In this document: in pieces, positions 1 to 61,428 of the stretch
Position numbering within the stretch: the stretch's first letter is position 1
Layout of the letters: each line of letters begins with the position of its first letter
Source: Octopus vulgaris
Taxonomy: Eukaryota
DNA: 64,000 nt
NCBI GenBank assembly: GCA_951406725.2
Contig: OX597827.1
Span: forward strand, 80,414,001-80,478,000
Direction of reading: 5' to 3'
Translations under genes and position numbers: made by a program
Notes under the pieces: model-generated
What the model was told of the DNA's origin: nothing
The model's input: the letters and a program-made list of their open reading frames with translations, nothing else
The model's database searches: none

Positions 1-512
1 TTTGATTTTAATTTATATTGTATTAAGGAATTTTGAAATCCTACATCTTTGTCTATGGCATTCGGTATTGATACTTGAGAACCTTTACGATCATTTTCAC
101 CAAACTGTATATTCACATTCTTTATAGGAAACTCCGGTTCGTGGTCATTGATATCTTCTATTACAATTTTGACTTTTAATATTTTTGTGAAGCTATCCAT
201 TTTCTTAATAATAACTTTCACAGTTCTGGAACATTCTTTGTTGAATGTGCAGAGATCTTCTGCATCCAGTGTCTGAGCAGTGTACAGTTTACCTGTTTTG
301 GTGATGTTAAATAACTGTGCCACCTTTCGTTTGAATTGACTGAATGTTATCAAATGTTGGTCAGATGGTTTAACATTGTCTAAAAGTTTAGAATCGGCAG
401 CAATGTCTGCTACATATGTTCCTGGACTTCTCTCTTCTTCCACATGGTAAGTAAGGTCTATGGTCAGGACACAGTGGACCATTGATAATACAATGGACAA
501 TGACAGGAACAT
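1..512 (-). CDS. PCDH: Protocadherin P1, 5' part of large exon (signal peptide, EC1, start of EC2); runs off the window edge
   Basis: ATG at 512 in CAACATG context reads MFLSLSIVLSMVHCVLTIDLTYHVEEERSPGTYVADI...DINDHEPEFPIKNVNIQFGENDRKGSQVSIPNAIDKD, matching the six full paralogs. Splice acceptor (ctgttttag) at 569-570. Confidence 0.95.
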   Translation of the reverse strand, partial: MFLSLSIVLSMVHCVLTIDLTYHVEEERSPGTYVADIAADSKLLDNVKPSDQHLITFSQFKRKVAQLFNITKTGKLYTAQTLDAEDLCTFNKECSRTVKVIIKKMDSFTKILKVKIVIEDINDHEPEFPIKNVNIQFGENDRKGSQVSIPNAIDKDVGFQNSLIQYKLKS

Positions 513-6363: not shown

Positions 6364-6893
6364 CCTCCATTCTTGACAGTTAAGAAGGGATTCTAATAAG
6401 CGTGCTGCCAGTAACTCTAAGCAAGATATAAAACACACCATTATTTCATTACTGCTAAAACTCTTCACATTACAAAAGGATTTAGACAAAATCTTCTTTC
6501 AAAAATTGAATATAAACACGTGAAGATATCTTTCACATGCCATCTGCTATTGTGGTAAGATATTAGATCTTAGTTAAATCAAAAACAAATAGACACAATA
6601 ACACTATATTGTGGAGAGTGTTGTCTCTGATTACTGATCAATATGCATAACGAATTGATACGACTAGTCTTGTTTTAATGGATACAGTCTAAATATTAAG
6701 CTCTTTAATCAACATAATCCAATTAATTTTAATTAAAACAATATGAAAAATATTAGTGAAAAATAAGACTGAATTATTCTTCAGTGTTTTTATTCCCTTA
6801 TTACTATTTAAATATATTAAAAACAATATATTACAGATTAAGTGAGATTTATAACATAAAATGAGATTATAAAAGATTTAAATAGAAACTTAC
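6364..6893. repeat. Intron-1 segment nearly identical to 19335-19864
   Basis: tccattcttgacagttaagaagggattctaat through gaaacttac matches over ~530 bp with few substitutions. Confidence 0.9.
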
Positions 6894-7066
6894 CTTTTTA
6901 ATAATTATATCATTGGTTATTCAGTGAGAAAGAGAAAGATGTATTGTTGTAGAAAGATCCATTGTAAGTGCTGCTGTAATGGTGTGACAATGGCTGTTAT
7001 GGTGATGGAGTAGTGTAGCACGTCAGGCAGAGAGTCTGCTGCTAGGAGAGGGTTGCATGTGTCACT
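6894..7066 (-). other. Predicted non-coding first exon (leader) of P1
   Basis: One of seven near-identical 173-nt blocks. Starts at an Inr-like TTCAGTG and ends at donor AAAG|GTAAGT. The 5' end is inferred. Confidence 0.8.
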
Positions 7067-7270
7067 GAAGTTGTATGTTTTGTGAGAGTACATCTGTCTG
7101 ATAATAACATTCTGCTGAGCTGTTGTCAATAACTATTTACATATATGAAGATATATACTTATAATATAGTTGCAATATTCTATAGTTAAACATAATTGTT
7201 TTGTTTAATAATACTAGTAGTGTAAATGCTTAGCTTTGTTAGTGATTACTTTCTATGTTTTAGTGAGAAT

Positions 7271-7303
7271 CTGATTGGTTGATGACTTAAACAACAGACC
7301 AAT
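7271..7303. promoter_or_regulatory. Inverted CCAAT pair upstream of the P1 leader
   Basis: CTGATTGG, then a 20-bp gap, then CCAAT. Present upstream of all six leaders whose upstream region is visible. Confidence 0.75.
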
Positions 7304-7558
7304 GATGATGTCCTTTTAATATTGATTTGCATTAAGTAGGGTACAAGGGAGGGTTGTGACATTCTATATTTGATCACAAGCCTTAGTATAACTTGATTTA
7401 GTTTTGAGTACATTTCTCCTTAAATTTTATAAAAAACATTAGCATTAATATTTTCCACTAAAATTTTTCTATCTTTATATTTCAATAAGACAAATTATTT
7501 TGAAGCTTCTATTTTGTGCCTAACTCACACAGTTTGAGTGTAACTGGAAGATACATAG

Positions 7559-7865: not shown

Positions 7866-7942
7866 TTACACTTGTTTCACTGGTGTTTCTTCACTAGAAT
7901 CTTTTGATGCAGATGTCCCATTGTTTTTATAAATATTTTGGT
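7866..7942 (-). CDS. PCDH: Protocadherin P2 terminal coding exon (exon 4)
   Basis: Acceptor ttctaaattccag. The phase-1 join with exon 3 gives DQNIYKNNGTSASKDSSEETPVKQV-TAA. The same 77-nt block occurs in all six complete units. Confidence 0.85.
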
Positions 7943-9740: not shown

Positions 9741-10439
9741 TGAAGGAGAATCTGCTAGATTTATTGAAGAGGATTAGCCGACAGAAGTACTTATTCTTCC
9801 TTGTAAATGATAATGATCTTAGCTGTGACATTATTCTGAAACTTAAAGCAACCAACATGACCGAGATACAAGAAACCAGTGATAAATCCTGTCATCTTCA
9901 TCATAGTGATCAGATAAAATTTCAAGTCAAACTAAAAACTTCAAATATTCAAAATGAAATGCTTGTTTATTGTAAATTGCACAATTTTTCAATGCAGCTT
10001 GCATCAGGAAATCTGTAAATTGTATCTAAAACTGATGAAACATTTATTACTCCAACTAACATGACTACTAGTGATTCCTGTACTTTAAATCAAGAAGAAA
10101 AACTAGATTCATTTATTCCAAGACTCTCTCAGTGATTCTTGAGTAGATGAAAGCAATTCCATAAGAATAAACAAAATAAAACAGAAAATCCAGATTATCT
10201 GCTGAGTTCAAATATTCACATCATTTAAATGAATATCCATCCGTTCCCATTACCTTATGTACCAGTGTATCATGTAATCACAGATTTCTTACTTCTTGCA
10301 TGTGTCAACTCCAATGAATTCATGCCTCTTTAGGCCCAGTCTACATTGGAATGATTGTGCTAATACTACAATTGTACATATAACAAATTCTTTTATTTGA
10401 GTGTTACAATTCTATATTTAAGAGATGAGGAATTGTGTA

Positions 10440-10754
10440 CATTATTTACATTTGACAGATATTTGTCCTCATCTTGTTTGTTGTTAACACAACATTTCAG
10501 CTGCTATACCCTTCTGCCTTCATCAGGTGTCTTGGGGAAATTTCGAACCCGGGTTCTCATTCCTAAGGTATTTTTCGATGTTATTACTATTATTATTATT
10601 CAGGTCACTGCCTGGAATTGAACTTGGAATCTTGGAGTTAGTAGCCCCATGCTCTTAACCACTATGCCATATCCTCGTGGGCTGGAGGATATATCAGCCA
10701 AAATGTGTTAACAACAAATAAGATGAGGACAAATATTTTCAAATGTAAATAATG
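10440..10754. mobile_element. Penelope-like element remnant: inverted terminal segments, hammerhead-like motif and tRNA-like module
   Basis: Inverted arms of ~52 bp or more (cattatttacatttga...tcaaatgtaaataatg). The interior matches 55185-55372, which adjoins a Penelope endonuclease tail. Confidence 0.7.
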
Positions 10755-11029
10755 GAGTGTTACAGTTCAAATGTTGTAGAAATGCATTTACTACAAATCA
10801 ATACTCATACTTAGGTCTGTCATGAAGTCTGGGACTCATAAGATTGGAGCTTAATTCAATTTTTACATTAAAAATATTCATTACAATGCAAACACACATA
10901 TTTAAATTTAAGAATAGCAGAAAACAGGCCATCAATATTTAATTGAAAGTTTAACGTCTCTCTTCTTGATATAAATATCTGTTACATCGAAGAGATATTA
11001 AAGGAAATATAGCAATTACATTTACTAAC

Positions 11030-11183
11030 CTGACACTCCTGGTATTTCTTCGTAATGTTTCAAGTCTCCTTGTCTACCACTTCTCTTGGATGACATTGTA
11101 TCTGATGTATAGTTACAAACCATAGTAGCATTATCTTCCACAGCATCATCACTTGATGTCACCACAACAGGTTGACAGTATTT
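11030..11183 (-). CDS. PCDH: Protocadherin P2 exon 3 (cytoplasmic, 154 nt)
   Basis: Acceptor tttgtcaacag|AAATAC and donor TCAG|GTTAGT. Encodes KYCQPVVV...LKHYEEIPGVS, in frame with the exon 2 donor. Confidence 0.88.
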
Positions 11184-11354
11184 CTGTTGACAAACAAACG
11201 ATAAAGAAATGTGAGAAGACACCAAACAATGGAAGTTACAATCAACATGGAGAGAGAACAATTTAATATTGGAATGTATTATGGAAGTTAAAACATATTC
11301 AAAGAGATTTCATTGTTCACTTTTACAGAGAGAAAATGTAATGTTTCCACTTAC

Positions 11355-13730
11355 TGGGGTAGGTTTTGGTAAAGTTCTCGACTGAACCGAAGATTCATAT
11401 TTGTTCTGTAGCTGACCTTCTGCATAACATTCACTCTTGGATCTCTCAGAATAGATATTCCGCTTCACCATCTCTTCTGCATTCCTCGACATAGCAACAG
11501 AAGTGTTAGTCTGGTACAACAATTGTTTCATCTCTGCTCTACCTTGGTAGGCTGTATTCTTTGTGGCAGCAGCTGTGTTATCTCTGTGTTTAATACATTT
11601 CATAATACACAGTGTTATAGAAACAACAATAGCCACTGATATTATTACTGCTGATGATACAATGATAATAACCCATGTCATATGGACCCGACCTGAAGAT
11701 TGTAAAGGTCCACTCTTCGACATTGGTGATGTCTCGTTACTAACAGCCAACACCAAAGTGACACTAGTTGTTGACGACTGAACTGGACTACCACTGTCCT
11801 TCACAACAAACACCAGCTCATAACTTCCAGCATCATTTAGATAAACTTGTCTGGAGAAGGATAAAGCACCACTGTGTGAGTTCATACTAAACAACTGTTT
11901 AGCATTTCCTTGTTTGATTGCATATCTGAGGAAAGCATTGTTTCCACTGTCCCCATCAGAGGCTCTCAAAACTGTGATGTCACTCTTACTCTGCGGATGG
12001 TACTGCACATTTAGCGTGTAAGGGTCACTACTAGGATATGTAAAATACGGAGCATTGTCATTTTGATCTAGAATCTCAACAACAACATTCGCTGTGTCAT
12101 TCAGAGATGGGCTTCCATTGTCTTTGACAAAAACCTCAAACTTATACACATCTTGTTTCTCTCTGTCCAATGACATGGTCGCTGAAATGAAGCCATAACT
12201 GGTGATGAGAAATGGGAGATTGGATTTTTCTTTACGCAGCAGAGAATATGTGAGTTGTCCAGCAGATCCAAGATCAGGGTCAGTGGCATTGACAAAACCA
12301 ATAGGGAAGTCTTTATCTTTGTTTTCGTAGGTGAGGAATTGGAATGTATCTTTGGTAAACTGTGGTTGTACATCGTTGATGTCAGTCACTTGGATAGAGA
12401 GGCTTTTAACACTTTTGAGAGGAGGTAATCCTTTATCTTGACAGGAGACAGGAATGTTATAGTGTCCTTGTGTTTCTCTGTCCACTGGTTTGTTTAGAAT
12501 GATTTTATATTCTTTAGATCCCATTGACTGTAGTTTGAATGTATCATGTTTGATATCACAGCTGACCTCTCCATTTTGTCCCACATCATTGTCAGTGACC
12601 ATCACATAAGCAAGGAAACTACCGACTTTGATGTTTTCAGAGATGGTTCCTGTGTTATAATTGAGTGCATTAACATAATCTATATCCATAGAGGGAGGAT
12701 TATTGTGTTGGTTGATAACATTTACCAGAACAGTTGCTATGGAATTGAGTGGAGGGCTGCCTCCATCCCTGGCCTCTATAAACAATTCATAGGTTTTCTT
12801 TTTTTCCAACTTGGAGTATTTACTCAAGAAAATGCTTCCACTGGTTTCATTTAAGTGAAAATAGCTTTTTGCTAGATCTGATGTTTTGGGGCTGAAATGG
12901 AAAGTAATTTTACCATTTTCACCTGAATCAGCATCCGTTACAGATAAAACAATGATGGGTTTAGACTTGTGATGTGTGCTTTGTATGGATATATTGTATA
13001 GAGGTTTAGAAAACTCTGGTGGGTTGTCATTCACATCTGTTATCGAGATATTTATATTCAAAATACCTTGTTTTGATGGCGAACCTCCATCTTTAGCTAT
13101 GACTTGTAGTAAATATGTATCTTTGACTTCTCTGTCTAATGATTCTTTTAAAACTATTTTCAGAGAAGAAATACCATCAGCTCTTTTAGAAACTGACAGA
13201 GAGAATGGTTCTCCATTCTTTGATTTCAATTTATATTGTATTAATGAGTTTTGAAATCCTACATCTTTGTCTATGGCATTTGGTAGTGATACTTTAGAAC
13301 CTTTACTATCATTTTCATCAAACTGTATATTAACTTGCTTTAAAGGAAACTCCGGTTCGTAGTCATTAATATCTTCTATTACTATTTTGACTTTTAATAT
13401 TTTTGTGAAACTATCCACTTTCTTTATAATAACTTTAACAGTTCTGGAACATTCTTTGTTGAATGTGCAGAGATCTTCTGCATCCAGTGTCTGAGCAGTG
13501 TACAGTTTACCTGTTTTGGTGATATTAAATAACTGTGCCACCTTTCGTTTGAATTGACTGAATGTTATCAAATGTTGGTCAGATGGTTTAACATTGTCTA
13601 AAAGTTTAGAATCGGCAGCAATGTCTGCTACATATGTTCCTGGACTTCTCTCTTCTTCCACATGGTAGGTAAGGTCTATGGTCAAGACACAGTGGACCAG
13701 CGACAATACAAAGGTCAATGGCAGGAACAT
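11355..13730 (-). CDS. PCDH: Protocadherin P2 large exon (SP, EC1-6, TM, proximal tail)
   Basis: Six cadherin repeats (DxNDN, DRE, DxD, AxDxG motifs), EC1 C-x5-C motif, hydrophobic TM. Donor CCA|GTAAGT at 11354; the unspliced ORF continues to 11310. Acceptor at 13786-13787. Confidence 0.97.
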
Positions 13731-18511: not shown

Positions 18512-19864
18512 CATGATTTAACATCCATCTTCCATACTGACATGGGTGGAACAGTTTGCTGGCAAGCTGAAGGTTCCAGCCTGATTGAGCTTGGTTTTTA
18601 TGGCTTGATGTGTGTGTGCTGGGTGCTTTTAATGTGACACCAGCACAAATGCTTTTATGTGAAGCTAGCTTGAGTGTTTTTATATGGCACAAACCCTTGA
18701 CTCTAGCAAACCAATCTTTTTCACCAGGGAAAGCAGCCAGCCTTAACACTTCTGCTGTGGGGGACAGGATTATTATTATTTTTTTTACTGAAGTTGGAAA
18801 TATGACAGGAACATTACCATAAAATGCAGTGCATAAAGTAAGCAAAGAGTTATGATGAAACAAATGAGTTAAAAACTAGTCCAGTAGAATTCTAAAAAAT
18901 AGTTGAGAAGAATTCTAAAACATATCCTAGATGATACACAATATATTCCTCCTGAAATAAGTAATCTTTGATGGAAGAAGTATTAAATATTCTCATGATA
19001 ATTAATAATAAATGTTAAAAGAATTTTGAAACAAAATTAACTGATGGAAATTTTATCGCTAAGGAAATAACAGAAAAAAAAAGCAGGCAAGATTTATAAT
19101 TTGGGTTCTGTTTTAATAATATTGTTTTAATGGATAAAGTTTAAATATTAAACATTTTTACCAACATAATCCAATTAACTTTAAATAAAACAATATGATT
19201 TAGATTTTTTTTGAGATGAGATTTTCAATGAACTCCTATTTGATTTATTATCATAGCAGGAGTAAGATAAAATAAGTATATTTAGAGTTTCATCAATTTA
19301 AATTAGAGCTGGACCATAACAATATATGCTACCATCTCCATTCTTGACAGTTAAGAAGGGATTCTAATATGTCTGCTGCTAGTAACTCTAAGCAAAATAT
19401 AAAACACACCATTACTTCATTACTGCTAAAACTCTTCACATTACAAAAGGATTTAGACACAATCTTCTTTCATATATTGAATACAAACATGTGAAGATAT
19501 CTTTCACATGCCATCTGCTATTGTGGTACGATATTAGATCTTAGTTAAATCAAAAACAAACAGACACAATAACACTATATTGTGGAGAGTGTTGTCTCTG
19601 ATTACTGATCAATATGCATAACGAATTGATACGACTAGTCTTGTTTTAATGGATACAGTCTAAATATTAAGCTCTTTAATCAACATAATCCAATTAATTT
19701 TAATTAAAACAATATGAAAAATATTAGTGAAAAATAAGGGTGAATTATTCTTCAGTGTCTTTGTTCCCTTATTACTATTTAAATATATTAAAAACAATAT
19801 ATTACAGATTAAGTGAGATTTATAACATAAAATGAGATTATAAAAGATTCAAATAGAAACTTAC

Positions 19865-20037
19865 CTTTTCAATAATTATATCATTGGTTATTCAGTGAGG
19901 AAGAGAAAGATGTATTGTTGTAGAAAGATCCATTGTAAGTGCTGCTGTAATGGTGTGACAATGGCTGTTATGGTGATGGAGTAGTGTAGCACGTCAGGCA
20001 GAGAGTCTGCTGCTAGGAGAGGGTTGCATGTGTCACT
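19865..20037 (-). other. Predicted non-coding first exon of P2
   Basis: Leader copy with two substitutions versus consensus. Donor AAAG|GTAAGT; Inr-like TTCAGTG. Confidence 0.8.
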
Positions 20038-20251
20038 GAAGTTGTATGTTTGTAAGAGTACATCCACCTAATAGTATTCTGTGTATGTATTTATCCTTAA
20101 AGAAGATTATTAGTGAATATTTAGATATATACAGAGTTATATTTAAATAGCAGCAATATTTTATAGTTAAACATAACTGTTTGGTTTAATAACATCAATA
20201 ATGTAAATGCTTAGCTTTCTAAGTGACTTCATTCTATGTTTTAGTGAGAAT

Positions 20252-20285
20252 CTGATTGGTTGAATGACTTCAATAAAGGACCAAT
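20252..20285. promoter_or_regulatory. Inverted CCAAT pair, P2 promoter
   Basis: CTGATTGG, 21-bp gap, CCAAT. Confidence 0.75.
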
Positions 20286-20792
20286 GAGAATTGTCTTTAG
20301 TCCTAATTTCTTTTCACTCAGCTGTATATTTTACATTTATAGTAAATGATTGTCAGTGTTTTTCAAGAACAGTGACAATATCAATATCTAGTCTTACTTT
20401 CATAAGTATTTTTTTGGAAATTATAAAGAAAATGGTGATAATAAATATTTTCATTAAAATTCCTTTTTAGATTTATAATTTAGATATCCTAGGACAATAT
20501 TCTTTGTGCAACTCCATTATATAAATTTAGACCATTACATGTCAGAGCTAAAGTAAGTTTCTTTTTATTAAGTGTTGATCATATTTCAGTTTTTTCAATT
20601 GTAGTAACTTAAAAATATTGCAGTAGGAAAACTCATCTGAAACTGGTTGAATCTGTGTCAGTAGAGAGAATTAAAGCTTTTCAGAAACTGCTATCTTTGG
20701 GGAATAACTAATGCTATATATTAGAGATACGAAGGAATGTGTAATGTTGATTGTGTGTATGGAACAAATGTAGTTATGCTACTTCAATATTA

Positions 20793-22329: not shown

Positions 22330-24699
22330 TGGGGTAGGTTTTGGTAAAGTTCTCGACTGAACTGAAGATTCATATTTGTTCTGTAGCTGACCTTCTGCAT
22401 AACATTCACTCTTGGATCTCTCAGAATAGATATTCCGCTTCACCATCTCTTCTGCATTCCTCGACATAGCAACAGAAGTGTTAGTCTGGTACAACAATTG
22501 TTTCATCTCTGCTCTACCTTGGTAGGCTGTATTCTTTGTGGCAGCAGCTGTGTTATCTCTGTGTTTAATACATTTCATAATACACAGTGTTATAGAAACA
22601 ACAATAGCCACTGATATTATTACTGCTGATGATACAATGATAATAACCCATGTCATATGGACCCGACCTGAAGATTGTAAAGGTCCACTCTTCGACATTG
22701 GTGATGTCTCGTTACTAACAGCCAATACCAAAGTGACACTAGTTGTTGACGACTGAACTGGACTACCACTGTCCTTCACAACAAACACCAGCTCATAACT
22801 TCCAGCATCATTTAGATAAACTTGTCTGGAGAAGGATAAAGCACCACTGTGTGAGTTCATACTAAACAACTGTTTATCATTTCCTTGTATGATTGCATAT
22901 CTGAGGAAAGCATTGTTTCCACTGTCCCCATCAGAGGCTCTCAAAACTGTGATGTCACTCTTACTCTGCGGATGGTACTGCACATTTAGCGTGTAAGGGT
23001 CACTACTAGGATATGTAAAATACGGAGCATTGTCATTTTGATCTAGAATCTCAACAACAACATTCGCTGTGTCATTCAGAGATGGGCTTCCATTATCTTT
23101 GACAAAAACCTCAAACTTATACACATCTTGTTTCTCTCTGTCCAATGACATGGTCGCTGAAATGAAGCCATAACTGGTGATGAGAAATGGGAGATTGGAT
23201 TTTTCTTTACGCAGCAGAGAATATGTGAGTTGTCCAGCAGATCCAAGATCAGGGTCAGTGGCATTGACAAAACCAATAGGGAAGTCTTTATCTTTGTTTT
23301 CGTAGGTGAGGAATTGGAATGTATCTTTGGTAAACTGTGGTTGTACATCGTTGATGTCAGTCACTTGGATAGAGAGGCTTTTAACACTTTTGAGAGGAGG
23401 TAATCCTTTATCTTGACAGGAGACAGGAATGTTATAGTGTCCTTGTGTTTCTCTGTCCACTGGTTTGTTTAGAATGATTTTATATTCCTTGGATCCCATT
23501 GACTGTAGTTTGAATGTATCATGTTTGATATCACAGCTGACCTCTCCATTTTGTCCCACATCATTGTCAGTGACCATCACATAAGCAATGAAACTACCAA
23601 CTTTGATCTTTTCAGAGATGGTACCAGTGTTGTCACTGATTGCAGAAACATAATCAATATCAATAGATGGAGGATTGTTGTGTTGGTTGATAACATTTAC
23701 GAGGACTGTTGCAATAGAACTGATTGGAGGATTGCCTCCATCTCTGGCTTCTATAAATAATTCAAAAGATGTTTTTTCATTCAAACTAGAAATTCTAGAT
23801 AAAAATACTTTGCCAGCTTTTTCATCCAATTCGAAATATTTCTTTGCCAAATCAGAAGTTTTGGGGCTGAAATGGAAAGTAATTTTACTGTTGGATCCAA
23901 TATCTTTGTCTGTCACTGACAAAGTAAGAATGGGTTTTGTTTTGTCGTGTGTGGTTCTAATGGAAATATTATAAAGGGGTTTTGAAAATACAGGTGGATT
24001 ATCATTCTGATCATCAACAACAATCACAACATTTAACACACTCTGTTTAGATGGAGAACCTCCATCTTTAGCAATAACTTCTAAATTGTACTTATCTTTT
24101 AACTCTCGGTCTAATTTATCCTTTAAAACAATATTTAATGATGAAATACCATCAGCTCTTTTGGAAACTGACAAAGAAAATGAATTAGACTTTTTAAGTT
24201 TATATTCAATGAAAGAATTTTGATAACTAACATCTTTGTCTATGGCATTTGGAATTGACTTTTTCATACCTTCACGATCTCCTTCACCAAACTTTAAAAT
24301 TATTTGTTTTTCAGGAAACTCCGGTTCATGGTCATTGATGTCTTCTATTACTATTTTGACTTTTAATATTTTTGTGAAACTATCCACTTTCTTTATAATA
24401 ACTTTCATAGTTCTAGAACATTCTTTGTTGAATGTGCAGAGATCTTCTGCATCCAGTGTCTGAGCAGTGTACAGTTTACCTGTTTTGGTGATGTTAAATA
24501 ACTGTGCCACCTTTCGTTTGAATTGACTGAATGTTATCAGATGTTGGTCAGATGGTTTAACATTGTCCAAAAGTTTAGAATCGGCAGCAATGTCTGCTAC
24601 ATATGTTCCTGGACTTCTCTCTTCTTCCACATGGTAGGTAAGGTCAATGGTCAAGACACAGTGGACCATTGACAATACAATGGACAATGACAATAACAT
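22330..24699 (-). CDS. PCDH: Protocadherin P3 large exon (divergent EC2-EC3)
   Basis: 804-aa ORF with six EC repeats and TM. Donor at 22329; AAG acceptor at 24746-24747. Confidence 0.97.
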
Positions 24700-26848: not shown

Positions 26849-28137
26849 AGTCAATTAAGAATTCAAATTAGCAAATAGCATGAACTGCTAGGAAACATTG
26901 TGCTTTATCATTTTAGCTGAAATGAAATAAGAATGAGGATGCATCAAGCCATGGCATGCATCCAGCACAGGAATATATGACAGGTAGCTGATAAGTAGAT
27001 TGTAGAGGCATTTGGAAAATATCACCATACCACCCTTTCCAATATTTTCATCTTCAGTATAAAAACGATGTTTTACTTCTGCTAGCTTACTTTTATAGCA
27101 ATTTCGTGAGAAATGTCTGCTAGATTAAATTTTAAGGAGTTGAAATTTTATTTGATATCAATATAATTATGATGACATTAATTAGATATTTACTGAACAC
27201 ATGTGCCATGATCATGGTTCATATTTTGAAGATCTGGTAAATAATTTTGAAAACAAAAGGCATAATGTATTATCTCATAATGGCAACTGTATTAAAAGCA
27301 AAGTTTCTAATTTAGTTCTTGTTACAAGGAGGAAAAATCAGTTATTTAGAACAGAGGACTTCAAAATAGACAAAACAAAACTCTTATACAAAATGTTTAT
27401 AGGAAATTTTACGAAAAAAATTAAAATTTTAAAAGAAATTAAAATAAATTTCATCTTTGACAATCCTCACTCACCATTTATTTATGAAATATTAAGATGT
27501 ATAGACACAAACATATTCCAAAATTTAATATATAAATATTTAACTCTGGTTTTATGTATTTAATAACGAGTAGACTTGAGCCTTCTCAATAGATTATTTA
27601 CGTATCTTATGAAACAAACTACTGTTCACTTCTCAACAGCTGTAAATCTGTCGATCTGCCATTAGTCTAAACTAAGATGTATAACACAGCACTATATAAG
27701 CCAAGAGAACAAGCTACACATGATAATGGGACTGAAGTGCATTGTAGGGTATTTCTTCATATTTCATAACAAACCTCATTAAATATCTTTCGTATTCCAT
27801 ATTCTACACACACACACACACGTGCACACACACACATAACACTACACTCTATAGATTATCTTCTATTGTTACTCATCAATATTTGTACCAGATATTACAG
27901 AGACACGTAATAATAATTTAATGGAATAAAGTCTAAATATCAAACATTTCAAATAATATTATCCAATTAATTTTGAGACAAAACAATATGAAAAACATTA
28001 TAGAAAAATATGGGTGAATTATTGTTCAATCTCTTTGTTCTCTTGTTAATACTAAATATGTTAGAACAATATTATTTCAAGTTCAGTGAGATTTATTGCA
28101 TCAAATGAGATTATAAAAAGATTAAATAGAAACTTAC

Positions 28138-28310
28138 CTTTTTAATAATTATATCATTGGTTATTCAGTGAGAAAGAGAAAGATGTATTGTTGTAGAAAG
28201 ATCCATTGTAAGTGCTGCTGTAATGGTGTGACAATGGCTGTTATGGTGATGGAGTAGTGTAGCACGTCAGGCAGAGAGTCTGCTGCTAGGAGAGGGTTGC
28301 ATGTGTCACT
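28138..28310 (-). other. Predicted non-coding first exon of P3
   Basis: Consensus leader copy with donor and Inr-like start. Confidence 0.8.
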
Positions 28311-28513
28311 GAAGTTGTATGTTTTGTGGGAGTACGTCCATCTAATGATACTTTGTGTATGTATTTATCCTTAAAGATAATGTTTCTTTATCATGGCCAA
28401 CGATCATTTAAATACATTTAGGTGTATGTTTGAATGACTGCAATTTTCTATAGTTAAACATCAGTAATGTGAATATCTTTGTGAGTGGTTTCTTTCTGGG
28501 TTTTAGTGAGGAT

Positions 28514-28546
28514 CTGATTGGTTGAATACCCAAACAGGAGACCAAT
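28514..28546. promoter_or_regulatory. Inverted CCAAT pair, P3 promoter
   Basis: CTGATTGG, 20-bp gap, CCAAT. Confidence 0.75.
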
Positions 28547-28949
28547 AAAGATGTTTCATTAATATTGATTAGTTTTGATGAAATAGGTACCTCATGTTTA
28601 TAATAGGGGACAAGTTAGATGAAGGGACATTAATGCTTTAATTACGAGCCTTACTAATATTGATAACTAGATTCAATTTCGAGTCCATTTTTGTTTACAT
28701 ATCAGAAAATGTTATTTTTAATGACAACATGGCATTAAAATATTCTAAGATTTACAAAAAATTATTTTGTGGCCTTCACTCCCTCTTCTTATTCATACAA
28801 TTTGTAATAAATATTAAACTAACTTTAATGAATATTTAAGATGTTCCAAATTGAATATATTTATATAATAATAATTTATCTCTACAATGTAATTTTTAGC
28901 AATTAAAACATTTTTTTCTGTTTATGTATGGACACCATGTCTTAGAGTA

Positions 28950-33571: not shown

Positions 33572-35947
33572 TGGGGTAGGTTTTGGTAAAGTTCTCGACT
33601 GAACTGAAGATTCATATTTGTTCTGTAGCTGACCTTCTGCATAACATTCACTCTTGGATCTCTCAGAATAGATATTCCGCTTCACCATCTCTTCTGCATT
33701 CCTCGACATAGCAACAGAAGTGTTAGTCTGGTACAACAATTGTTTCATCTCTGCTCTACCTTGGTAGGCTGTATTCTTTGTGGCAGCAGCTGTGTTATCT
33801 CTGTGTTTAATACATTTCATAATACACAGCGTTATAGAAACAACAATAGCCACTGATATTATTACTGCTGATGATACAATGATAATAACCCATGTCATAT
33901 GGACCCGACCTGAAGATTGTAAAGGTCCACTCTTCGACATTGGTGATGTCTCGTTACTAACAGCCAATACCAAAGTGACACTAGTTGTTGACGACTGAAC
34001 TGGACTACCACTGTCCTTCACAACAAACACCAGCTCATAACTTCCAGCATCATTTAGATAAACTTGTCTGGAGAAGGATAAAGCACCACTGTGTGAGTTC
34101 ATACTAAACAACTGTTTAGCATTTCCTTGTATGATTGCATATCTGAGGAAAGCATTGTTTCCACTGTCCCCATCAGAGGCTCTCAAAACTGTGATGTCAC
34201 TCTTACTCTGCGGATGGTACTGCACATTTAGCGTGTAAGGGTCACTACTAGGATATGTAAAATACGGAGCATTGTCATTTTGATCTAGAATCTCAACAAC
34301 AACATTCGCTGTGTCATTCAGAGATGGGCTTCCATTATCTTTGACAAAAACCTCAAACTTATACACATCTTGTTTCTCTCTGTCCAATGACATGGTCGCT
34401 GAAATGAAGCCATAACTGGTGATGAGAAATGGGAGATTGGATTTTTCTTTACGCAGCAGAGAATATGTGAGTTGTCCAGCAGATCCAAGATCAGGGTCAG
34501 TGGCATTGACAAAACCAATAGGGAAGTCTTTATCTTTGTTTTCGTAGGTGAGGAATTGGAATGTATCTTTGGTAAACTGTGGTTGTACATCGTTGATGTC
34601 AGTCACTTGGATAGAGAGGCTTTTAACACTTTTGAGAGGAGGTAATCCTTTATCTTGACAGGAGACAGGAATGTTATAGTGTCCTTGTGTTTCTCTGTCC
34701 ACTGGTTTGTTTAGAATGATTTTATATTCTTTAGATCCCATTGACTGTAGTTTGAATGTATCATGTTTGATATCACAGCTGACCTCTCCATTTTGTCCCA
34801 CATCATTGTCAGTGACCATCACATAAGCAATGAAACTACCGACTTTGATGTTTTCAGAGATGGTACCTGTGTTATAATTGAGTGCAGAGACATAATCTAT
34901 ATTCATAGATGGAGGATTATTGTGTTGGTTGATAACATTCACTAGAACTGTTGCTATAGAACTAAAGGGTGGGGTGCCCCCATCTCTGGCTTCAATAAAC
35001 AATTCATAAGTTTTCTTTTTACCTAGACTCGAATATTTACTTAAGAAAATATTTCCACTGGTTTCATTTAACAGGAAATAGCTTTTTGCTAGATCTGATG
35101 TCTTTGGACTGAAGTGGAAAGTAATTTTACCATTTTCACCAGAATCAGCATCAGTCACAGACAAAACAATGATGGGCTTAGCTTTGTGATGTGCACTTTG
35201 TATGGATATATTATATAGAGGTTTAGAAAACTCTGGTGGGTTGTCATTCAAATCTGTTATGGAAATATTTATATTTAGAATACCTTGTTTTGCTGGTGAC
35301 CCTCCATCTTTAGCTATGACCTGTAATAAATACGTATCTTTCATTTCTCTGTCTAATGATTCTTTTAAAACTATATTAAGAGAAGAAATACCATCAGCTC
35401 TTTTAGACACTGACAGAGAGAATGGTTCTCCATTCTTTGATTTTAATTTATATTGTATTAATGAGTTTTGAAATCCTACATCTTTGTCTATGGCATTCGG
35501 TAGTGATCTTTTTGAACTGATGCGGGCATCTTCTCCAAACTCTATGTTGACATTCTTTATAGGAAATTCTGGTTCATGGTCATTAATATCTTCTATTACA
35601 ATTTTGACTTTTAATATTTTTGTGAAACTATCCATTTTCTTTATAATAACTTTCACAGTTCTAGAACATTCTTTGTTGAATGTGCAGAGATCTTCTGCAT
35701 CCAGTGTCTGAGCAGTGTACAGTTTACCTGTTTTGGTGATATTAAATAACTGTGCCACCTTTCGTTTGAATTGACTGAATGTTATCAAATGTTGGTCAGA
35801 TGGTTTAACATTGTCTAAAAGTTTAGAATCGGCAGCAATGTCTGCTACATACGTTCCTGGACTTCTCTCTTCTTCCACATGGTAGGTAAGGTCTATGGTC
35901 AAAACACAGTGGACCAGTGACAATACAATAGACAACGATAGGAACAT
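33572..35947 (-). CDS. PCDH: Protocadherin P4 large exon
   Basis: 806-aa ORF with six EC repeats and TM. Donor at 33571; acceptor at 36005-36006. Confidence 0.97.
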
Positions 35948-40001: not shown

Positions 40002-40174
40002 CTTTTTAATAATTATATCATTGGTTATTCAGTGAGAAAGAGAAAGATGTATTGTTGTAGAAAGATCCATTGTAAGTGCTGCTGTAATGGTGTGACAATG
40101 GCTGTTATGGTGATGGAGTAGTGTAGCACGTCAGGCAGAGAGTCTGCTGCTAGGAGAGGGTTGCATGTGTCACT
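40002..40174 (-). other. Predicted non-coding first exon of P4
   Basis: Consensus leader copy. Confidence 0.8.
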
Positions 40175-42010: not shown

Positions 42011-44386
42011 TGGGGTAGGTTTTGGTAAAGTTCTTGACTGAACTGAAGATTCATATTTGTTCTGTAGCTGACCTTCTGCATAACATTCACTCTTGGATCT
42101 CTCAGAATAGATATTCCGCTTCACCATCTCTTCTGCATTCCTTGACATAGCAACAGAAGTGTTAGTCTGGTACAACAATTGTTTCATCTCTGCTCTACCT
42201 TGGTAGGCTGTATTCTTTGTGGCAGCAGCTGTGTTATCTCTGTGTTTAATACATTTCATAATACACAGCGTTATAGAAACAACAATAGCCACTGATATTA
42301 TTACTGCTGATGATACAATGATAATAACCCATGTCATATGGACCCGACCTGAAGATTGTAAAGGTCCACTCTTCGACATTGGTGATGTCTCATTACTAAC
42401 AGCCAATACCAAAGTGACACTAGTTGTTGACGACTGAACTGGACTACCACTGTCCTTCACAACAAACACCAGCTCATAACTTCCAGCATCATTTAGATAA
42501 ACTTGTCTGGAGAAGGATAAAGCACCACTGTGTGAGTTCATACTAAACAACTGTTTATCATTTCCTTGTATGATTGCATATCTGAGGAAAGCATTGTTTC
42601 CACTGTCCCCATCAGAGGCTCTCAAAACTGTGATGTCACTCTTACTCTGCGGATGGTACTGCACATTTAGCGTGTAAGGGTCACTACTAGGATATGTAAA
42701 ATACGGAGCATTGTCATTTTGATCTAGAATCTCAACAACAACATTTGCCGTGTCATTCAGAGATGGGCTTCCATTATCTTTGACAAAAACCTCAAACTTA
42801 TACACATCTTGTTTCTCTCTGTCCAATGACATGGTTGCTGAAATGAAGCCATAACTGGTGATGAGAAATGGGAGATTGGATTTTTCTTTACGCAGCAGAG
42901 AATATGTGAGTTGTCCAGCAGATCCAAGATCAGGGTCAGTGGCATTGACAAAACCAATAGGGAAGTCTTTATCTTTGTTTTCGTAGGTGAGGAATTGGAA
43001 TGTGTCTTTGGTAAACTGTGGTTGTACATCGTTGATGTCAGTCACTTGGATAGAGAGGCTTTTAACACTTTTGAGAGGAGGTAATCCTTTATCTTGACAG
43101 GAGACAGGAATGTTATAGTGTCCTTGTGTTTCTCTGTCCACTGGTTTGTTTAGAATGATTTTATATTCTTTGGATCCCATTGACTGTAGTTTGAATGTAT
43201 CATGTTTGATATCACAGCTGACCTCTCCATTTTGTCCCACATCATTGTCAGTGACCATCACATAAGCAATGAAACTACCAACTCTGGTATTTTCAGAGAT
43301 GGTACCTGTGTTATAATTGAGTGCATTAACATAATCAATATCAATAGATGGAGGATTGTTGTGTTGGTTGATAACATTTACGAGGACTGTTGCTATGGAA
43401 CTGAGAGGAGGGTTGCCTCCATCTCTAGCCTCTATGAATAATTCGTAAGTTTTCTTTTTCCCTAAGTTTGAATATTCCTTTAACAAAATATTTCCACTGG
43501 TTTCATTTAAGTGAAAATAGCTTTCTGCTAGATCTGATGTTTTTGGACTGAAGTGGAAAGTAATTTTACTATTTTTACCAGAATCAGCATCTGTTACAGA
43601 CAAAACAATGATGGGTTTAGATTTGTGATGTGTACTTTGTATGGATATATTATATAGAGGTTTAGAAAACTCTGGTGGGTTATCATTAACATCTATTACA
43701 GAAATATTTATATTCAAAATCCCTTGTTTTGCTGGTGACCCTCCATCTTTAGCTATGACCTGTAATAAATATGTATCTTTGATTTCTCTGTCCAATGTTT
43801 CTTTTAAAACTATTTTAAGAGAAGAAATACCGTCAGCTCTTTTAGACACTGACAGAGAGAATGGTTCTCCATTCTTTGATTTTAATTTATATTGTATTAA
43901 TGAGTTCTGAAATCCAACATCTTTGTCTATGGCATTCGGTATTGATCTTTTTGCATTTTTGCGATCATCTTCACTAAACTGTATGTTCACATTATTCTTA
44001 AGAAACTCTGGTTCGTGGTCATTGATATCTTCTATTACAATTTTGACTTTTAATATTTTTGTGAAGCTATCCATTTTCTTTATAATAACTTTCACAGTTC
44101 TGGAACATTCTTTGTTGAATGTGCAGAGATCTTCTGCATCCAGTGTCTGAGCAGTGTACAGTTTACCTGTTTTGGTGATGTTAAATAACTGTGCCACCTT
44201 TCGTTTGAATTGACTGAATGTTATCAAATGTTGGTCAGATGGTTTAACATTGTCTAAAAGTTTAGAATCGGCAGCAATGTCTGCTACATATGTTCCTGGA
44301 CTTCTCTCTTCTTCCACATGGTAGGTAAGGTCTATGGTCAGGACACACTGGACCAGTGAGAATACAAAGGTCAATGGCAGTAACAT
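42011..44386 (-). CDS. PCDH: Protocadherin P5 large exon
   Basis: 806-aa ORF with six EC repeats and TM. Donor at 42010; acceptor at 44443-44444. Confidence 0.97.
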
Positions 44387-50699: not shown

Positions 50700-53075
50700 T
50701 GGGGTAGGTTTTGGTAAAGTTCTCGACTGAACCGAAGATTCATATTTGTTCTGTAGCTGACCTTCTGCATAACATTCACTCTTGGATCTCTCAGAATAGA
50801 TATTCCGCTTCACCATCTCTTCTGCATTCCTCGACATAGCAACAGAAGTGTTAGTCTGGTACAACAATTGTTTCATCTCTGCTCTACCTTGGTAGGCTGT
50901 ATTCTTTGTGGCAGCAGCTGTGTTATCTCTGTGTTTAATACATTTCATAATACACAGCGTTATAGAAACAACAATAGCCACTGATATTATTACTGCTGAT
51001 GATACAATGATAATAACCCATGTCATATGGACCCGACCTGAAGATTGTAAAGGTCCACTCTTCGACATTGGTGACGTCTCGTTACTAACAGCTAATACCA
51101 AAGTGAGACTAGTTGTTGACGACTGAACTGGACTACCACTGTCCTTCACAACAAACACCAGCCCATAACTTCCAGCATCATTTAGATAAACTTGTCTGGA
51201 GAAGGATAAAGCACCACTGTGTGAGTTCATACTAAACAACTGTTTATCATTTCCTTGTTTGATTGCATATCTGAGGAAAGCATTGTTTCCACTGTCCCCA
51301 TCAGAGGCTCTCAAAACTGTGATGTCACTCTTACTCTGTGGATGGTACTGCACATTTAGCGTGTAAGGGTCACTACTAGGATATGTAAAATACGGAGCAT
51401 TGTCATTTTGATCTAGAATCTCAACAACAACATTCGCTGTGTCATTCAGAGATGGGCTTCCATTATCTTTGACAAAAACCTCAAACTTATACACATCTTG
51501 TTTCTCTCTGTCCAATGACATGGTCGCTGAAATGAAGCCATAACTGGTGATGAGAAATGGGAGATTGGATTTTTCTTTACGCAGCAGAGAATATGTGAGT
51601 TGTCCAGCAGATCCAAGATCAGGGTCAGTGGCATTGACAAAACCAATAGGGAAGTCTTTATCTTTGTTTTCGTAGGTGAGGAATTGGAATGTATCTTTGG
51701 TAAACTGTGGTTGTACATCGTTGATGTCAGTCACTTGGATAGAGAGGCTTTTAACACTTTTAAGAGGAGGTAATCCTTTATCTTGACAGGAGACAGGAAT
51801 GTTATAGTGTCCTTGTGTTTCTCTGTCCACTGGTTTGTTTAGAATGATTTTATATTCTTTAGATCCCATTGACTGTAGTTTGAATGTATCATGTTTGATA
51901 TCACAGCTGACCTCTCCATTTTGTCCCACATCATTGTCAGTGACCATCACATAAGCAAGGAAACTACCAACTTTGATGTTTTCAGAGATGGTACCTGTGT
52001 TATAATTGATTGCAGAAACATAATCAATATCAATAGATGGAGGATTGTTGTGTTGGTTGATGACATTTACTAGAACAGTTGCAATGGAACTAAAAGGTGG
52101 ACTGCCCCCATCCCTGGCTTCTATAAATAGTTCATATGTTTTCTTTTTTCCCAAATTTGAATATTTCTTTAACAGAATATTTCCACTGGTTTCATTTAAC
52201 TGAAAATAGCTTTTTGCTAGATCTGATGTCTTTGGACTGAAATGGAAAGAAATTTTACCATTTTCACCAGCATCAGCATCAGTCACAGATAAAACAATGA
52301 TGGGTTTAGACTTGTGATGTGCACTTTGTATGGATACATTATACAGAGGTTTTGAAAACTCTGGTGGGTTATCATTAACATCTATTACAGAAATATTTAT
52401 ATTTAAAACACCTTGTTTTGCTGGTGAACCTCCATCTTTAGCTATGACCTGTAATAAATACGTATCTTTGATTTCTCTGTCCAATGATTCTTTTAAAACT
52501 ATATTAAGCGAAGAAATACCGTCAGCTCTTTTAGACACTGACAGAGAGAATGGTTCACCATTCTTTGATTTTAATTTATATTGTATTAAGGAATTTTGAA
52601 ATCCTATATCCTTGTCCATTGCGTTTGGTAGTGATACTTTGGCTTCATCACGATCATCTTCATCAAACTGTATATTAACTTGCTTTAAAGGAAACTCCGG
52701 TTCATGGTCATTAATATCTTCTATTACTATTTTGACTTTTAATATTTTTGTGAATGATTCCATTTTCTTAATAATAACTTTAAGAGTTCTGGAACATTCT
52801 TTGTTGAATGTGCAGAGATCTTCTGCATCCAATGTCTGAGCAGTGTACAGTTTACCTGTTTTGGTGATGTTAAATAACTGTGCCACCTTTCGTTTGAATT
52901 GACTGAATGTTATCAAATGTTGGTCAGATGGTTTAACATTGTCTAAAAGTTTAGAATCGGCAGCAATGTCTGCTACATATGTTCCTGGACTTCTCTCTTC
53001 TTCCACATGGTAGGTAAGGTCTATGGTCAAGACACAGTGGACCATTGACAATACAATAGAAAATGACAGGAGCAT
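50700..53075 (-). CDS. PCDH: Protocadherin P6 large exon
   Basis: Likely start is MLLSFSIV at 53075, which aligns with the paralogs. Acceptor ttttttcag at 53127-53128; donor at 50699. Confidence 0.96.
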
Positions 53076-59052: not shown

Positions 59053-61428
59053 TGGGGTAGGTTTTGGTAAAGTTCTCGACTGAACCGAAGATTCATATTT
59101 GTTCTGTAGCTGACCTTCTGCATAACATTCACTCTTGGATCTCTCAGAATAGATATTCCGCTTCACCATCTCTTCTGCATTCCTCGACATAGCAACAGAA
59201 GTGTTAGTCTGGTACAACAATTGTTTCATCTCTGCTCTACCTTGGTAGGCTGTATTCTTTGTGGCAGCAGCTGTGTTATCTCTGTGTTTAATACATTTCA
59301 TAATACACAGCGTTATAGAAACAACAATAGCCACTGATATTATTACTGCTGATGATACAATGATAATAACCCATGTCATATGGACCCGACCTGAAGATTG
59401 TAAAGGTCCACTCTTCGACATTGGTGATGTCTCGTTACTAACAGCCAATACCAAAGTGACACTAGTTGTTGACGACTGAACTGGACTACCACTGTCCTTC
59501 ACAACAAACACCAGCTCATAACTTCCAGCATCATTTAGATAAACTTGTCTGGAGAAGGATAAAGCACCACTGTGTGAGTTCATACTAAACAACTGTTTAT
59601 CATTTCCTTGTATGATTGCATATCTGAGGAAAGCATTGTTTCCACTGTCCCCATCAGAGGCTCTCAAAACTGTGATGTCACTCTTACTCTGCGGATGGTA
59701 CTGCACATTTAGCGTGTAAGGGTCACTACTAGGATATGTAAAATACGGAGCATTGTCATTTTGATCTAGAATCTCAACAATAACATTCGCTGTGTCATTC
59801 AGAGATGGGCTTCCATTATCTTTGACAAAAACCTCAAACTTATACACATCTTGTTTCTCTCTGTCCAATGACATGGTCGCTGAAATGAAGCCATAACTGG
59901 TGATGAGAAATGGGAGATTGGATTTTTCTTTACGCAGCAGAGAATATGTGAGTTGTCCAGCAGATCCAAGATCAGGGTCAGTGGCATTGACAAAACCAAT
60001 AGGGAAGTCTTTGTCTTTGTTTTCGTAGGTGAGGAATTGGAATGTATCTTTGGTAAACTGTGGTTGTACATCGTTGATGTCAGTCACTTGGATAGAGAGG
60101 CTTTTAACACTTTTAAGAGGAGGTAATCCTTTATCTTGACAGGAAACAGGAATGTTATAGTGTCCTTGTGTTTCTCTGTCCACTGGTTTGTTTAGAATGA
60201 TTTTATATTCTTTAGATCCCATTGACTGTAGTTTGAATGTATCATGTTTGATATCACAGCTGACCTCTCCATTTTGTCCCACATCATTGTCAGTGACCAT
60301 CACATAAGCAATGAAACTACCGACTTTGATGTTTTCAGAAATGGTAGCTGTGTTGTGATTCTGTGTAGAAACATAATCTATATCAATAGATGGAGGATTG
60401 TTGTGTTGGTTGATGACATTTATCAGAACAGTTGCTATGGAACTGAGAGGAGGGCTGCCTTCATCCCTGGCCTCTACAAATAATTCATAGGTTTTCTTTT
60501 TCCCTAAGTTTGAATATTCCCTTAAGAAAATGCTTCCACTGGTTTCATTTAACTGAAAATAGCTTTTTGCCAAATCTGATGTCTTTGGACTGAAATGGAA
60601 AGTAATTTTACCATTTTCACCAGAATCAGCATCTGTTACAGATAAAACAATGATGGGTTTAGATTTGTGATGTGTACTTTGTATAGACATATTGTATAGA
60701 GGTTTAGAAAATACAGGTGGGTTGTCATTAACATCTATTATGGAAATATTTATGTTTAAAATACCTTGTTTTGCTGGCGAACCTCCATCTTTAGCTATGA
60801 CCTGTAATAAATATGTATCTTTGATTTCTCTGTCTAATGATTCTTTCAAAACTATTTTAAGAGAAGAAATTCCATCAGCTCTTTTAGCCACTGACAGAGA
60901 GAATGGTTCTCCATTCTTTGATTTTAATTTATATTGTATTAATGAGTTTTGAAATCCTACATCCTTGTCTATGGCATTTGGTAACGATTTTTTTGAACCT
61001 TTTGAAATATCCTCTGCAAGCTGCATATTGATTTTAATCTTAGGAAATTTTGGTTCATGGTCATTGATGTCTTCTATTACTATTTTGATTTTTAATATCT
61101 TTGAAACACTGGTTCCTTTATTGACAACAACCTTCATAGTTCTGGAACATTCTTTGTTGAATGTGCAGAGATCTTCTGCATCCAGTGTCTGAGCAGTGTA
61201 CAGTTTACCTGTTTTGGTGATGTTAAATAACTGTGCCACCTTTCGTTTGAATTGACTGAATGTTATCAAATGTTGGTCAGATGGTTTAACATTGTCTAAA
61301 AGTTTAGAATCGGCAGCAATGTCTGCTACATAGGTTCCTGGACTTCTCTCTTCTTCCACATGGTAGGTAAGGTCTATGGTCAGCACACAGTGGACCACTA
61401 ATAATACTACAGAAAATGGCAGTAACAT
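59053..61428 (-). CDS. PCDH: Protocadherin P7 large exon
   Basis: 806-aa ORF with six EC repeats and TM. Donor at 59052; acceptor at 61480-61481. Confidence 0.97.

Follow-up and report, generated by a model that had tools for sequence, protein, structure and literature searches.

Seven protocadherin open reading frames (P1-P7) lie head-to-tail on the minus strand of the window, the whole 64-kb stretch of Octopus vulgaris DNA analysed here; six are complete and P1 is truncated by the window edge. A preliminary description had singled out a hypervariable, charge-shuffling patch at the start of EC2 and proposed that its residues determine binding specificity, possibly under positive selection. 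Residues are numbered throughout from the first EC1 residue.

The array and its homogenised flanks

Octopus clustered protocadherins were reportedly described by Albertin in 2015 and by Wang and Ragsdale in 2017, and the window is one such array of tandem, same-strand, multi-exon full-gene duplicates, each with one large ectodomain exon. The proteins nearest to the window ORFs come from Octopus vulgaris, O. sinensis and Argonauta hians, and P2 is identical to O. vulgaris CAI9733506.1 across all 773 aligned positions. Protocadherin hallmarks are present, with Pfam PF08266 on EC1, five PF00028 stretches, and a transmembrane segment and cytoplasmic tail in the sequence, and the modelled fold matches Pcdh EC1-4. 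Cys-X5-Cys in EC1 is a protocadherin feature, and both of its cysteines (C71 and C77) are invariant in 148/148 octopod sequences.

In all six complete units, a large exon of the unit's own is followed, after a short intron, by a second coding exon and then by a far-off last exon. Because each complete unit carries its own downstream coding exons, the window units are full-gene duplicates, as the available text of PMC9068888 describes for coleoid protocadherins. A GT-AG intron (11183/11355) was joined in contigs of 4/4 public runs and a second intron (7942/11030) in contigs of 3/4, where the RNA status of the runs is a guess and the joints, lying within homogenised sequence, are not assignable to P2 alone. 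In the four runs the large intron had no contig coverage apart from one repeat and one short contig. The P2-type patch was spanned in three runs, with 3/204, 4/142 and 12/190 letters differing. A conserved non-coding block is present between units.

The seven paralogues share an identical protein sequence over EC1 residues 1-80 (dS 0.06), and residues 357-789 are nearly identical between them (dN 0.003, dS 0.03). The cytoplasmic exon and intron sequence is likewise homogenised between copies. Between the flanks lies a divergent island that runs from the EC1 F strand into EC4 A/B (residues 81-356), with dS of 0.2-0.8 overall and 0.5-0.8 in EC2-3. As a pattern, the flanks have been homogenised by gene conversion between copies. 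The available part of PMC4978886 describes the same arrangement in vertebrate clustered protocadherins, in which EC1, EC5 and EC6 are homogenised and EC2-3 spared (mouse alpha: EC1 96%, EC2 69%, EC3 59%, EC5 98%); here too EC2-EC3 is spared, and EC1, EC5 and EC6 are homogenised.

Table 1. Positions within the window of the features discussed in the text
Feature	Positions	Strand	Remarks
P1 EC2 patch	66..128	-	gene truncated by window edge
P2 last coding exon, P2's own	7869..7942	-	exon search and contig joints
P2 second coding exon, P2's own	11031..11183	-	exon search and contig joints
P2 homogenised EC4 rest, EC5, EC6, TM and proximal cytoplasmic part	11355..12611	-	ends at large-exon splice donor
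P2 EC4 A strand and loop (331-349), mildly variable	12633..12689	-	domain profile
EC3-EC4 linker (323-327), without canonical DxNDN calcium motif	12699..12713	-	
Codon 311, EC3 F-G loop/G start; L with K174, I or F with N174	12747..12749	-	
P2 EC3 D-E and E-F variable stretch (275-296), including degenerate DRE position	12792..12857	-	
Codon 174, EC2 strand E, K or N	13158..13160	-	coupled to codon 311
P2 EC2 patch, residues 112-132	13284..13346	-	A strand 13320-13346; A-B loop and B strand (121-132) 13284-13319
P2 EC1 F strand, F-G loop and G start (81-97)	13389..13439	-	two main types in family
P2 EC1 residues 1-80, protein-identical in seven paralogues	13440..13679	-	dS 0.06
P3 EC2 patch	24253..24315	-	class II, divergent across EC2-EC3
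P4 EC2 patch	35501..35563	-	loop differs at 6/12 residues from O. sinensis positional orthologue; matches Argonauta paralogues
P5 EC2 patch	43940..44002	-	
P6 EC2 patch	52629..52691	-	equals P2 at all 23 polymorphic sites in codons 109-122
P7 EC2 patch	60982..61044	-	

Variability and selection in the EC2 patch

The segment first noticed (13285-13360, minus strand) codes for EPEF and the P2 patch, and the seven peptides quoted for P1-P7 all match the seven ORFs. Across the six complete paralogues, the most variable 22-codon window of the island (81-356) was 111-132, with a pairwise amino-acid diversity of 0.51 compared with an island mean of 0.18. This value was never matched in 20,000 permutations (p = 5e-5) and the window stayed on top without P3, confirming a hypervariable patch at the start of EC2. 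In an AlphaFold2 monomer model (pLDDT 87.6), used for secondary structure alone, the patch comprises strand A (115-121), the A-B loop (122-128) and strand B (129-132). As described, its calcium-binding glutamate (E122) is constant and its core positions (116, 118, 120 and 132) are always hydrophobic; F111, K129 (6/7), S131 and P133 are also unchanging.

Other parts of the preliminary description needed qualification. Charge shuffling holds for changes of charge class, which are enriched in the patch (89/168 pairwise differences vs 173/581 in the rest of the island), but not for true reversals between positive and negative, which occur at the same rate in both (9/168 and 27/581). The smaller variable patches at EC1 F-G and EC4 A do differ from the homogenised flanks, but within the island they are unexceptional (scan-corrected p = 0.99 and 0.999). 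The variable spot in EC3 (271-296) reached a scan-corrected p of 0.016, which became 0.66 once P3 was removed.

Pairwise dN/dS fell from 0.55 in the patch to 0.16 in the remainder of EC2 and 0.12 in EC3. With our own codon-model script and region-specific trees of 6-7 sequences, omega was 0.38 for the patch vs 0.09 for the rest of EC2-3 (2dL 18.5, p = 2e-5), and synonymous depth was equal (2.1 per codon vs 2.0-2.1 elsewhere). The original proposal had been made dependent on a raised local dN/dS, and raised it is. The suggested positive selection, on the other hand, was not borne out: omega stays below 1, a value of 1 for the whole patch was rejected in favour of a lower one (2dL 6.8), and M2a gave no site class with omega above 1 compared with M1a (2dL about 0, at the low power of 6-7 sequences). 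Half of the patch codons (11/22) fell into a class with omega about 1. In vertebrate clustered protocadherins, sites with omega above 1 are said to have been found in EC2-EC3 by Wu in 2005. The patch variants in octopus look old and preserved rather than fast-evolving.

Old loop motifs, interface-equivalent positions and a coupled pair

The age of the motifs was assessed by aligning 32 Octopus rows (7 from the window, 11 O. vulgaris, 13 O. sinensis and 1 O. bimaculoides) with 20 from Argonauta. Duplicates (two O. sinensis rows), sequences with a start anchor mismatch (three proteins and one fused unit) and one 164-residue fragment were left out; 9/24 members of the main cluster stand outside the alignment, and one further O. 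bimaculoides member from a shorter-relative search stands outside the analyses. The O. vulgaris twin of P2 was kept for differentiation and loop distances and removed for covariation and motif counts. Differentiation between the 32 Octopus and 20 Argonauta rows was 0.84 from the EC4 rest to EC6 and 0.96 in the TM-cytoplasm part, compared with 0.03 in the patch and 0.00 in the loop. The flanks thus group by genus and the patch does not.

Consistent with this, the seven window loops (121-132) had a mean distance to the nearest Argonauta loop of 0.167, compared with 0.314 after shuffling of the Argonauta columns (0/2000, p = 0.0005). The equally variable A-strand half showed no cross-genus sharing (0.365 vs 0.338, p = 0.85) and therefore serves as an internal control, since the time span evidently does scramble variable sites; sharing in the EC3 D-E/E-F stretch was mild (p = 0.0125). 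Exact occurrence in both genera was found for 7/20 distinct six-residue loop motifs, including 4/7 window motifs (P1, P3, P4 and P5). As judged from proteins, the loop motifs predate the Octopus-Argonauta split and have been kept, although convergence onto a small residue alphabet might still have produced shared motifs, Argonauta having been compared as protein. Variation between paralogues combined with conservation within lineages is the signature that defines vertebrate specificity residues in the available text of PMC5106212, and loop motifs that vary between paralogues and are kept across genera carry the same signature. Loosely constrained surface is the more likely explanation for the A-strand half (113-117) and the EC3 D-E/E-F stretch. 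One loop motif can occur in several paralogues and in another subfamily, so the loop alone is no unique code; the same motif also occurs with both EC1 F-G types.

Motifs appear to have moved between copies. Downstream exons were too similar for orthologues to be assigned. In a fused O. sinensis model, however, UTR and intron pieces identify units 2 and 3 as the counterparts of P3 and P2, and units 1 and 4 were matched to P4 and P1 by order. Compared with these positional orthologues, the loop differs at 0/12 residues in P3, 2/12 in P2, 6/12 in P4 and 7/12 in P1. In P4 and P1 (2/4 orthologues), the O. sinensis loop is replaced by a motif that exists elsewhere in the family, and in P4 this occurred despite nearly unchanged EC3-EC4A surroundings. 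A further seven pairs show no more than one loop difference, but they were chosen by similarity and the comparison is therefore partly circular. The five class I paralogues share 43 informative sites in codons 134-356, whereas 100 single-tree simulations averaged 23.5 and never exceeded 35; with P3 added, 62 sites equal the simulated maximum of 62. A PHI-like recombination test gave no significant signal (p = 0.59). Codons 109-122 match between P2 and P6, whereas the sequence flanking them has diverged by ∼10% (p = 0.013, uncorrected for the 15 pairs compared), which marks a candidate short conversion tract. The O. sinensis models show assembly damage (residues 460-538 are garbled in unit 1), and because of such errors the loop swaps are indicated, not proven. 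Together, these observations indicate movement of loop motifs between copies by short-tract conversion in a few cases.

We then asked where the variable sites fall on vertebrate dimers. A P2 EC1-4 homodimer prediction without an alignment scored 0.01 in both runs; since it was uninformative, interface mapping rests on phmmer alignment to vertebrate structures and on the residues that published work names (numbering may be wrong by one for beta6, gammaB7 and Pcdh19). In the part of Cooper 2016 (PMC5115871) available, the shared interface comprises the EC1 F-G loop; the EC2 A-B loop, strand B, D-E loop and E start; the EC2-3 linker; EC3 C-D, F, G and F-G loop; and the EC4 A-strand loop, B and D-E. 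Using the accessible text of the respective papers, octopus 119 aligns with gammaB 111, whose partner gammaB 294 corresponds to octopus 308 (PMC5106212); 121 aligns with Pcdh19 S116; and 123 and 131 align with beta6 S117 and L125, which belong to a set of five residues sufficient to switch beta6 to beta8 (PMC8901172). Likewise, 128-131 align with Pcdh10 122-125, the facing EC3 G-strand residues being octopus 309-316, with 308 at the symmetric centre (PMC7082078).

Of 148 octopod sequences, 135 retain I94, 147 retain F355 and 145 retain Y358, the residues equivalent to the EC1:EC4 hydrophobic core. The variable sites 216, 308, 311 and 312, together with the coupled sites 174 and 311 (below), lie where the canonical EC2:EC3 contact predicts. 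As a set, however, the 25 mapped interface positions did not significantly exceed the remaining 256 island positions in variability (p = 0.11, 0.45 and 0.15 for three sets). The EC2 D-E loop, which in vertebrates contributes to both interface and specificity, shows no variation in the octopus paralogues, and EC3 F-G is merely 9-15% variable. Homology thus supports the claim that variable sites lie at the dimer interface for the EC2 A-B loop with its B strand, for the F-G loop of EC1 and for the A loop of EC4, all interface elements in vertebrate dimers, but not for EC3 E-F. For the claim that these are specificity residues, the patch sites align with vertebrate specificity sites and their motifs are kept across genera, but the EC3 spot is outside the interface list. 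From homology and this evolutionary signature, we consider it probable that the patch has a specificity role in partner choice.

Codons 174 and 311 lie 137 codons apart, in separate domains, and covary. N174 occurs with isoleucine or phenylalanine at 311 and K174 with leucine in 15/15 window and O. vulgaris rows (p = 3e-4), in 20/20 Argonauta rows (p = 8e-6) and in 11/13 O. sinensis rows (p = 0.11), i.e. in 46/48 paralogues overall, with the single O. bimaculoides row discordant. Codon 311 is the best partner of 174 by five orders of magnitude, and the coupling is also seen within class I alone. Between P3 and its O. sinensis orthologue, both codons changed (2 of 4 differences). The coupling was not seen in the other octopod subfamilies compared. 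Codons 174 and 311 may encode a contact between two molecules. Among vertebrate couplings in the accessible part of Nicoludis 2016 (PMC5001838), gammaB3 162-302, 159-302 and 205-297 correspond to octopus 173-316, 170-316 and 216-311, and the direct vertebrate equivalent, 163/297, does not appear in the first part of the coupling table of that paper.

Patch sites had no clear covarying partner in EC3 or EC4, and 216 in the adjacent linker recurred weakly. A loop without a distant partner leaves a gap in a model of complementary surfaces, yet is expected of a loop that pairs with itself near a two-fold axis. Mutual information over all 148 octopod sequences was uninformative, being dominated by subfamily ancestry. 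An association between EC1 type and G344 (7/8 vs 0/8 in window and O. vulgaris rows, 6/6 vs 0/7 in O. sinensis, 3/7 vs 0/13 in Argonauta) is not counted as support, since it may reflect common ancestry of neighbouring genes.

Calcium motifs are largely retained at the EC1-2, EC2-3 and EC4-5 linkers. At EC3-EC4, the A-strand Glu, the DRE-like motif and DxNDN were each found in 0/148 octopod sequences. Without these motifs, the dimer geometry may differ from the vertebrate template. The EC3 E-F spot includes the lost DRE site, so that release from calcium binding would account for its variability at least in part.

Competing explanations and known systems

The reading that we favour, and judge somewhat better than even, is a preserved and reshuffled specificity repertoire, convergent with that of vertebrate clustered protocadherins, rather than ongoing positive selection. 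Under this proposal, an octopod protocadherin subfamily expanded as full-gene duplicates, and conversion would keep EC1 and everything from mid-EC4 onward near-identical, leaving different between copies the stretch equivalent to the vertebrate antiparallel EC1-EC4 trans contact. The EC2 A-B loop and B strand would hold a limited set of old motifs, shifted between copies by short conversion tracts. Together with partner sites near the EC2-EC3 junction (216, 308, 311 and 312) and the 174/311 pair, the motif would most probably set which copy is bound on the opposing cell, much as in vertebrate clustered protocadherins, and selection would keep copies different and each motif intact rather than driving rapid change with omega above 1. 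A more specific version is possible, albeit on balance unlikely: the A-B loop may be a self-contained specificity cassette that pairs mainly with itself and the adjacent linker, ancient cassettes being shuffled by short-tract conversion against two-state modules (EC1 F-G type and 174/311) in a protein with a calcium-poor EC3-EC4 hinge. A loop that self-pairs near the two-fold axis could be copied between genes without a matching change elsewhere.

Relaxed constraint, by which an exposed strand and loop, less often converted, drift near-neutrally within a small alphabet and play no part in partner choice, is unlikely, less so than the remaining rivals. It would account for the half of the patch codons with omega about 1 and none above, for the absence of enriched variation at interface-equivalent sites, for the almost equal variability of EC3 D-E/E-F outside the known interface, and for the more variable windows elsewhere in two other subfamilies. 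It does not predict that loop motifs are common to both genera beyond column composition when the adjacent A-strand half is not, and it leaves unexplained why the unconverted island is the trans-binding region while cytoplasmic exon and intron are homogenised, and why codons as distant as 174 and 311 are coupled in two genera. We regard non-canonical binding as distinctly improbable, whether heterophilic between paralogues, to another ligand, or through a dimer reshaped by a calcium-poor and possibly bent EC3-EC4 linker that includes the EC3 D-E face. The lack of canonical EC3-EC4 calcium motifs in all 148 octopod sequences examined, the variable and mildly shared EC3 D-E/E-F stretch and the missing EC3 F-G partner for the loop would all suit such binding; the conserved EC1:EC4 core residues, and the fit of 174/311 and of variable 216, 308, 311 and 312 to the canonical EC2:EC3 contact, argue against it.

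Ongoing positive selection, with omega above 1 driving fast new change in the patch, is very unlikely: omega is fourfold above background, and both the small number of sequences and conversion would blur site tests, but fixing omega at 1 fits worse, M2a equals M1a and the motifs are old. Finally, collapsed or polished repeats in the assembly could give identical flanks and scrambled patches, and near-identical tandem copies are error-prone, as the damaged O. sinensis gene models illustrate. This is hardly credible here, given the same architecture in annotated O. vulgaris, O. sinensis and A. hians proteins, with genus-specific flanks, and independent runs with single contigs across the homogenised parts and the P2-type patch.

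Vertebrate clustered protocadherins form strictly homophilic, antiparallel EC1-4 trans dimers as well as EC5-6 cis dimers, and their promoters are chosen stochastically through CSE/CTCF. The likeness of the octopus array to them lies in homogenisation that spares EC2-3 and in a variable EC2 A-B loop and B strand, whose residues vary between paralogues and are conserved between orthologues in the available text of PMC5106212. In octopus, the same holds for the A-B loop; it is not significant over the 25 mapped sites, and the loop is replaced at 2/4 orthologues. The octopus expansion is independent and differs in several respects. Vertebrate alpha and gamma variable exons join shared constant exons, whereas each octopus gene has its own two downstream coding exons; octopus variation is concentrated in some 20 residues, and the EC2 D-E loop does not vary; canonical calcium motifs occur at every vertebrate linker and are missing from octopus EC3-EC4; and octopus motifs, in a system known so far from its sequence, appear to move between loci. 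The best solved-structure matches were delta-2 protocadherins (Pcdh8, 10, 17, 18 and 19; 6vg1, E 4e-87; 6vfr, Foldseek E 7e-47), which share the EC1:EC4 hydrophobic core with the octopus proteins. These are single-copy genes rather than an array, and they conserve the base of the EC2:EC3 contact (Pcdh10 122-125 against 318-326), whereas the octopus equivalent is the variable part. Segmental gene conversion also shuffles other multigene families, for example MHC binding-groove motifs, which are alike in their old shared motifs, short-tract recombination and homogenised background. Unlike MHC, the octopus units are neural adhesion paralogues, with no sign of allelic balancing selection or pathogen pressure.

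If the favoured reading is right, octopus and vertebrate protocadherins would have converged down to the residue positions used for specificity, and octopus would add a shuffling mechanism and a calcium-poor hinge, neither found in the vertebrate system. Recognition diversity otherwise arises by Dscam splicing or by vertebrate protocadherin promoter choice, and the cassette version would make a third route. Because near-isogenic paralogues differ in a few mapped spots, the question of a self/non-self code could be tested with a handful of swaps, at residues 121-132 and of K174/L311 for N174/F311. Clusters and conversion among them are known in outline (available parts of PMC6339937, PMC9068888 and PMC10084454), conversion in octopus arrays having been suggested in general terms (Styfhals 2019, PMC6339937; Albertin 2022, PMC9068888). 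The same parts of these last two papers give no domain-level conversion map and do not mention an EC2 patch, motifs common to several genera, coupled sites or the EC3-EC4 linker, and those of PMC9068888 and PMC10084454 make no functional claim for cephalopod protocadherins. Full-text searches, among whose hits were PMC13218726 and 10.1101/2025.05.16.652989, likewise turned up no paper on an octopus EC2 patch, cross-genus motif, coupled site or EC3-EC4 linker; any earlier mention would most likely be in Albertin 2015 or in Wang and Ragsdale 2017, or in the supplements to these papers.

The subfamily in the window was compared with three others from octopods, represented by 32, 15 and 13 cluster representatives. 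The patch was significantly the most variable window in one of the three. The EC4 rest is homogenised in these subfamilies too, and some of the loop motifs recur in the 32-member subfamily.

Coupled sites and the EC3–EC4 linker

Numbering from the first EC1 residue, we found that residue 174 in EC2 and residue 311 in EC3 are coupled near-perfectly, in two genera, and we consider this pair a candidate intermolecular contact. The EC1 F–G region occurs as two types, and Gly344 in the EC4 A strand was found with one of these types only, an association that is tight in Octopus and loose in Argonauta.

The canonical calcium motifs were absent from the EC3–EC4 linker in all octopod protocadherins examined (148/148). 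This linker is possibly a calcium-poor flexible hinge that is typical of the octopod expansion; our literature search found no paper describing an octopod EC3–EC4 linker without these motifs.

Coordinates of features in the window
Feature	Window position
Codon 174 (EC2)	13158-13160
Codon 311 (EC3)	12747-12749
EC1 F–G type region	13389-13439
Codon 344 (EC4 A strand)	
EC3–EC4 linker sites without calcium motifs	12699-12713 and 12792-12857, with counterparts in all units
P3	22285-24771
Homogenised intron and next exon (P2)	10982-11355, equivalents in other units
Non-coding block copies	6560-7328, 19533-20287, 27917-28570, 39668-40435, 48534-49313, 56930-57655, 63459-63893
P2-intron repeat	10391-10800
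Second copy of this repeat	near 55185-55375

P3 and the extent of homogenisation

The paralogue P3 is a member of a second class, with ∼28% DNA divergence across EC2–EC3, and both classes are present in Argonauta. Despite this divergence, P3 is homogenised (near-identical to the other copies) in EC1 and again from mid-EC4 on. An N-x-T sequon at residue 277 is present in the class I copies of the window and missing from P3. In P2, and at the equivalent positions of other units, homogenisation continues across the 171-base intron and the following exon and ends after that; last exons and signal peptides diverge more.

Two proteins, P0129 (O. vulgaris) and P0132 (O. sinensis), share the same type of EC2 A–B loop but have opposite EC1 F–G types, with many private changes in the normally homogenised tail. 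This may be an end-of-array copy, recently converted or decaying. Loop motifs of the window's subfamily also occurred in P0021, P0026 and P0027, from a subfamily only ∼58% identical overall. These shared motifs could be of great age, or result from conversion across subfamilies or from convergence.

Non-coding sequence between and within units

Every pair of units is separated by a non-coding block of ∼700 bases (copies 77–88% alike), which lies soon after the last exon of one gene and 2–6 kb ahead of the large exon of the following one. Candidate identities for the block are a 3′ UTR, a promoter or a non-coding first exon. A P2 intron carries a SINE-like, high-copy repeat that contigs from each of the four public runs cover very deeply, and a second copy lies elsewhere in the window.
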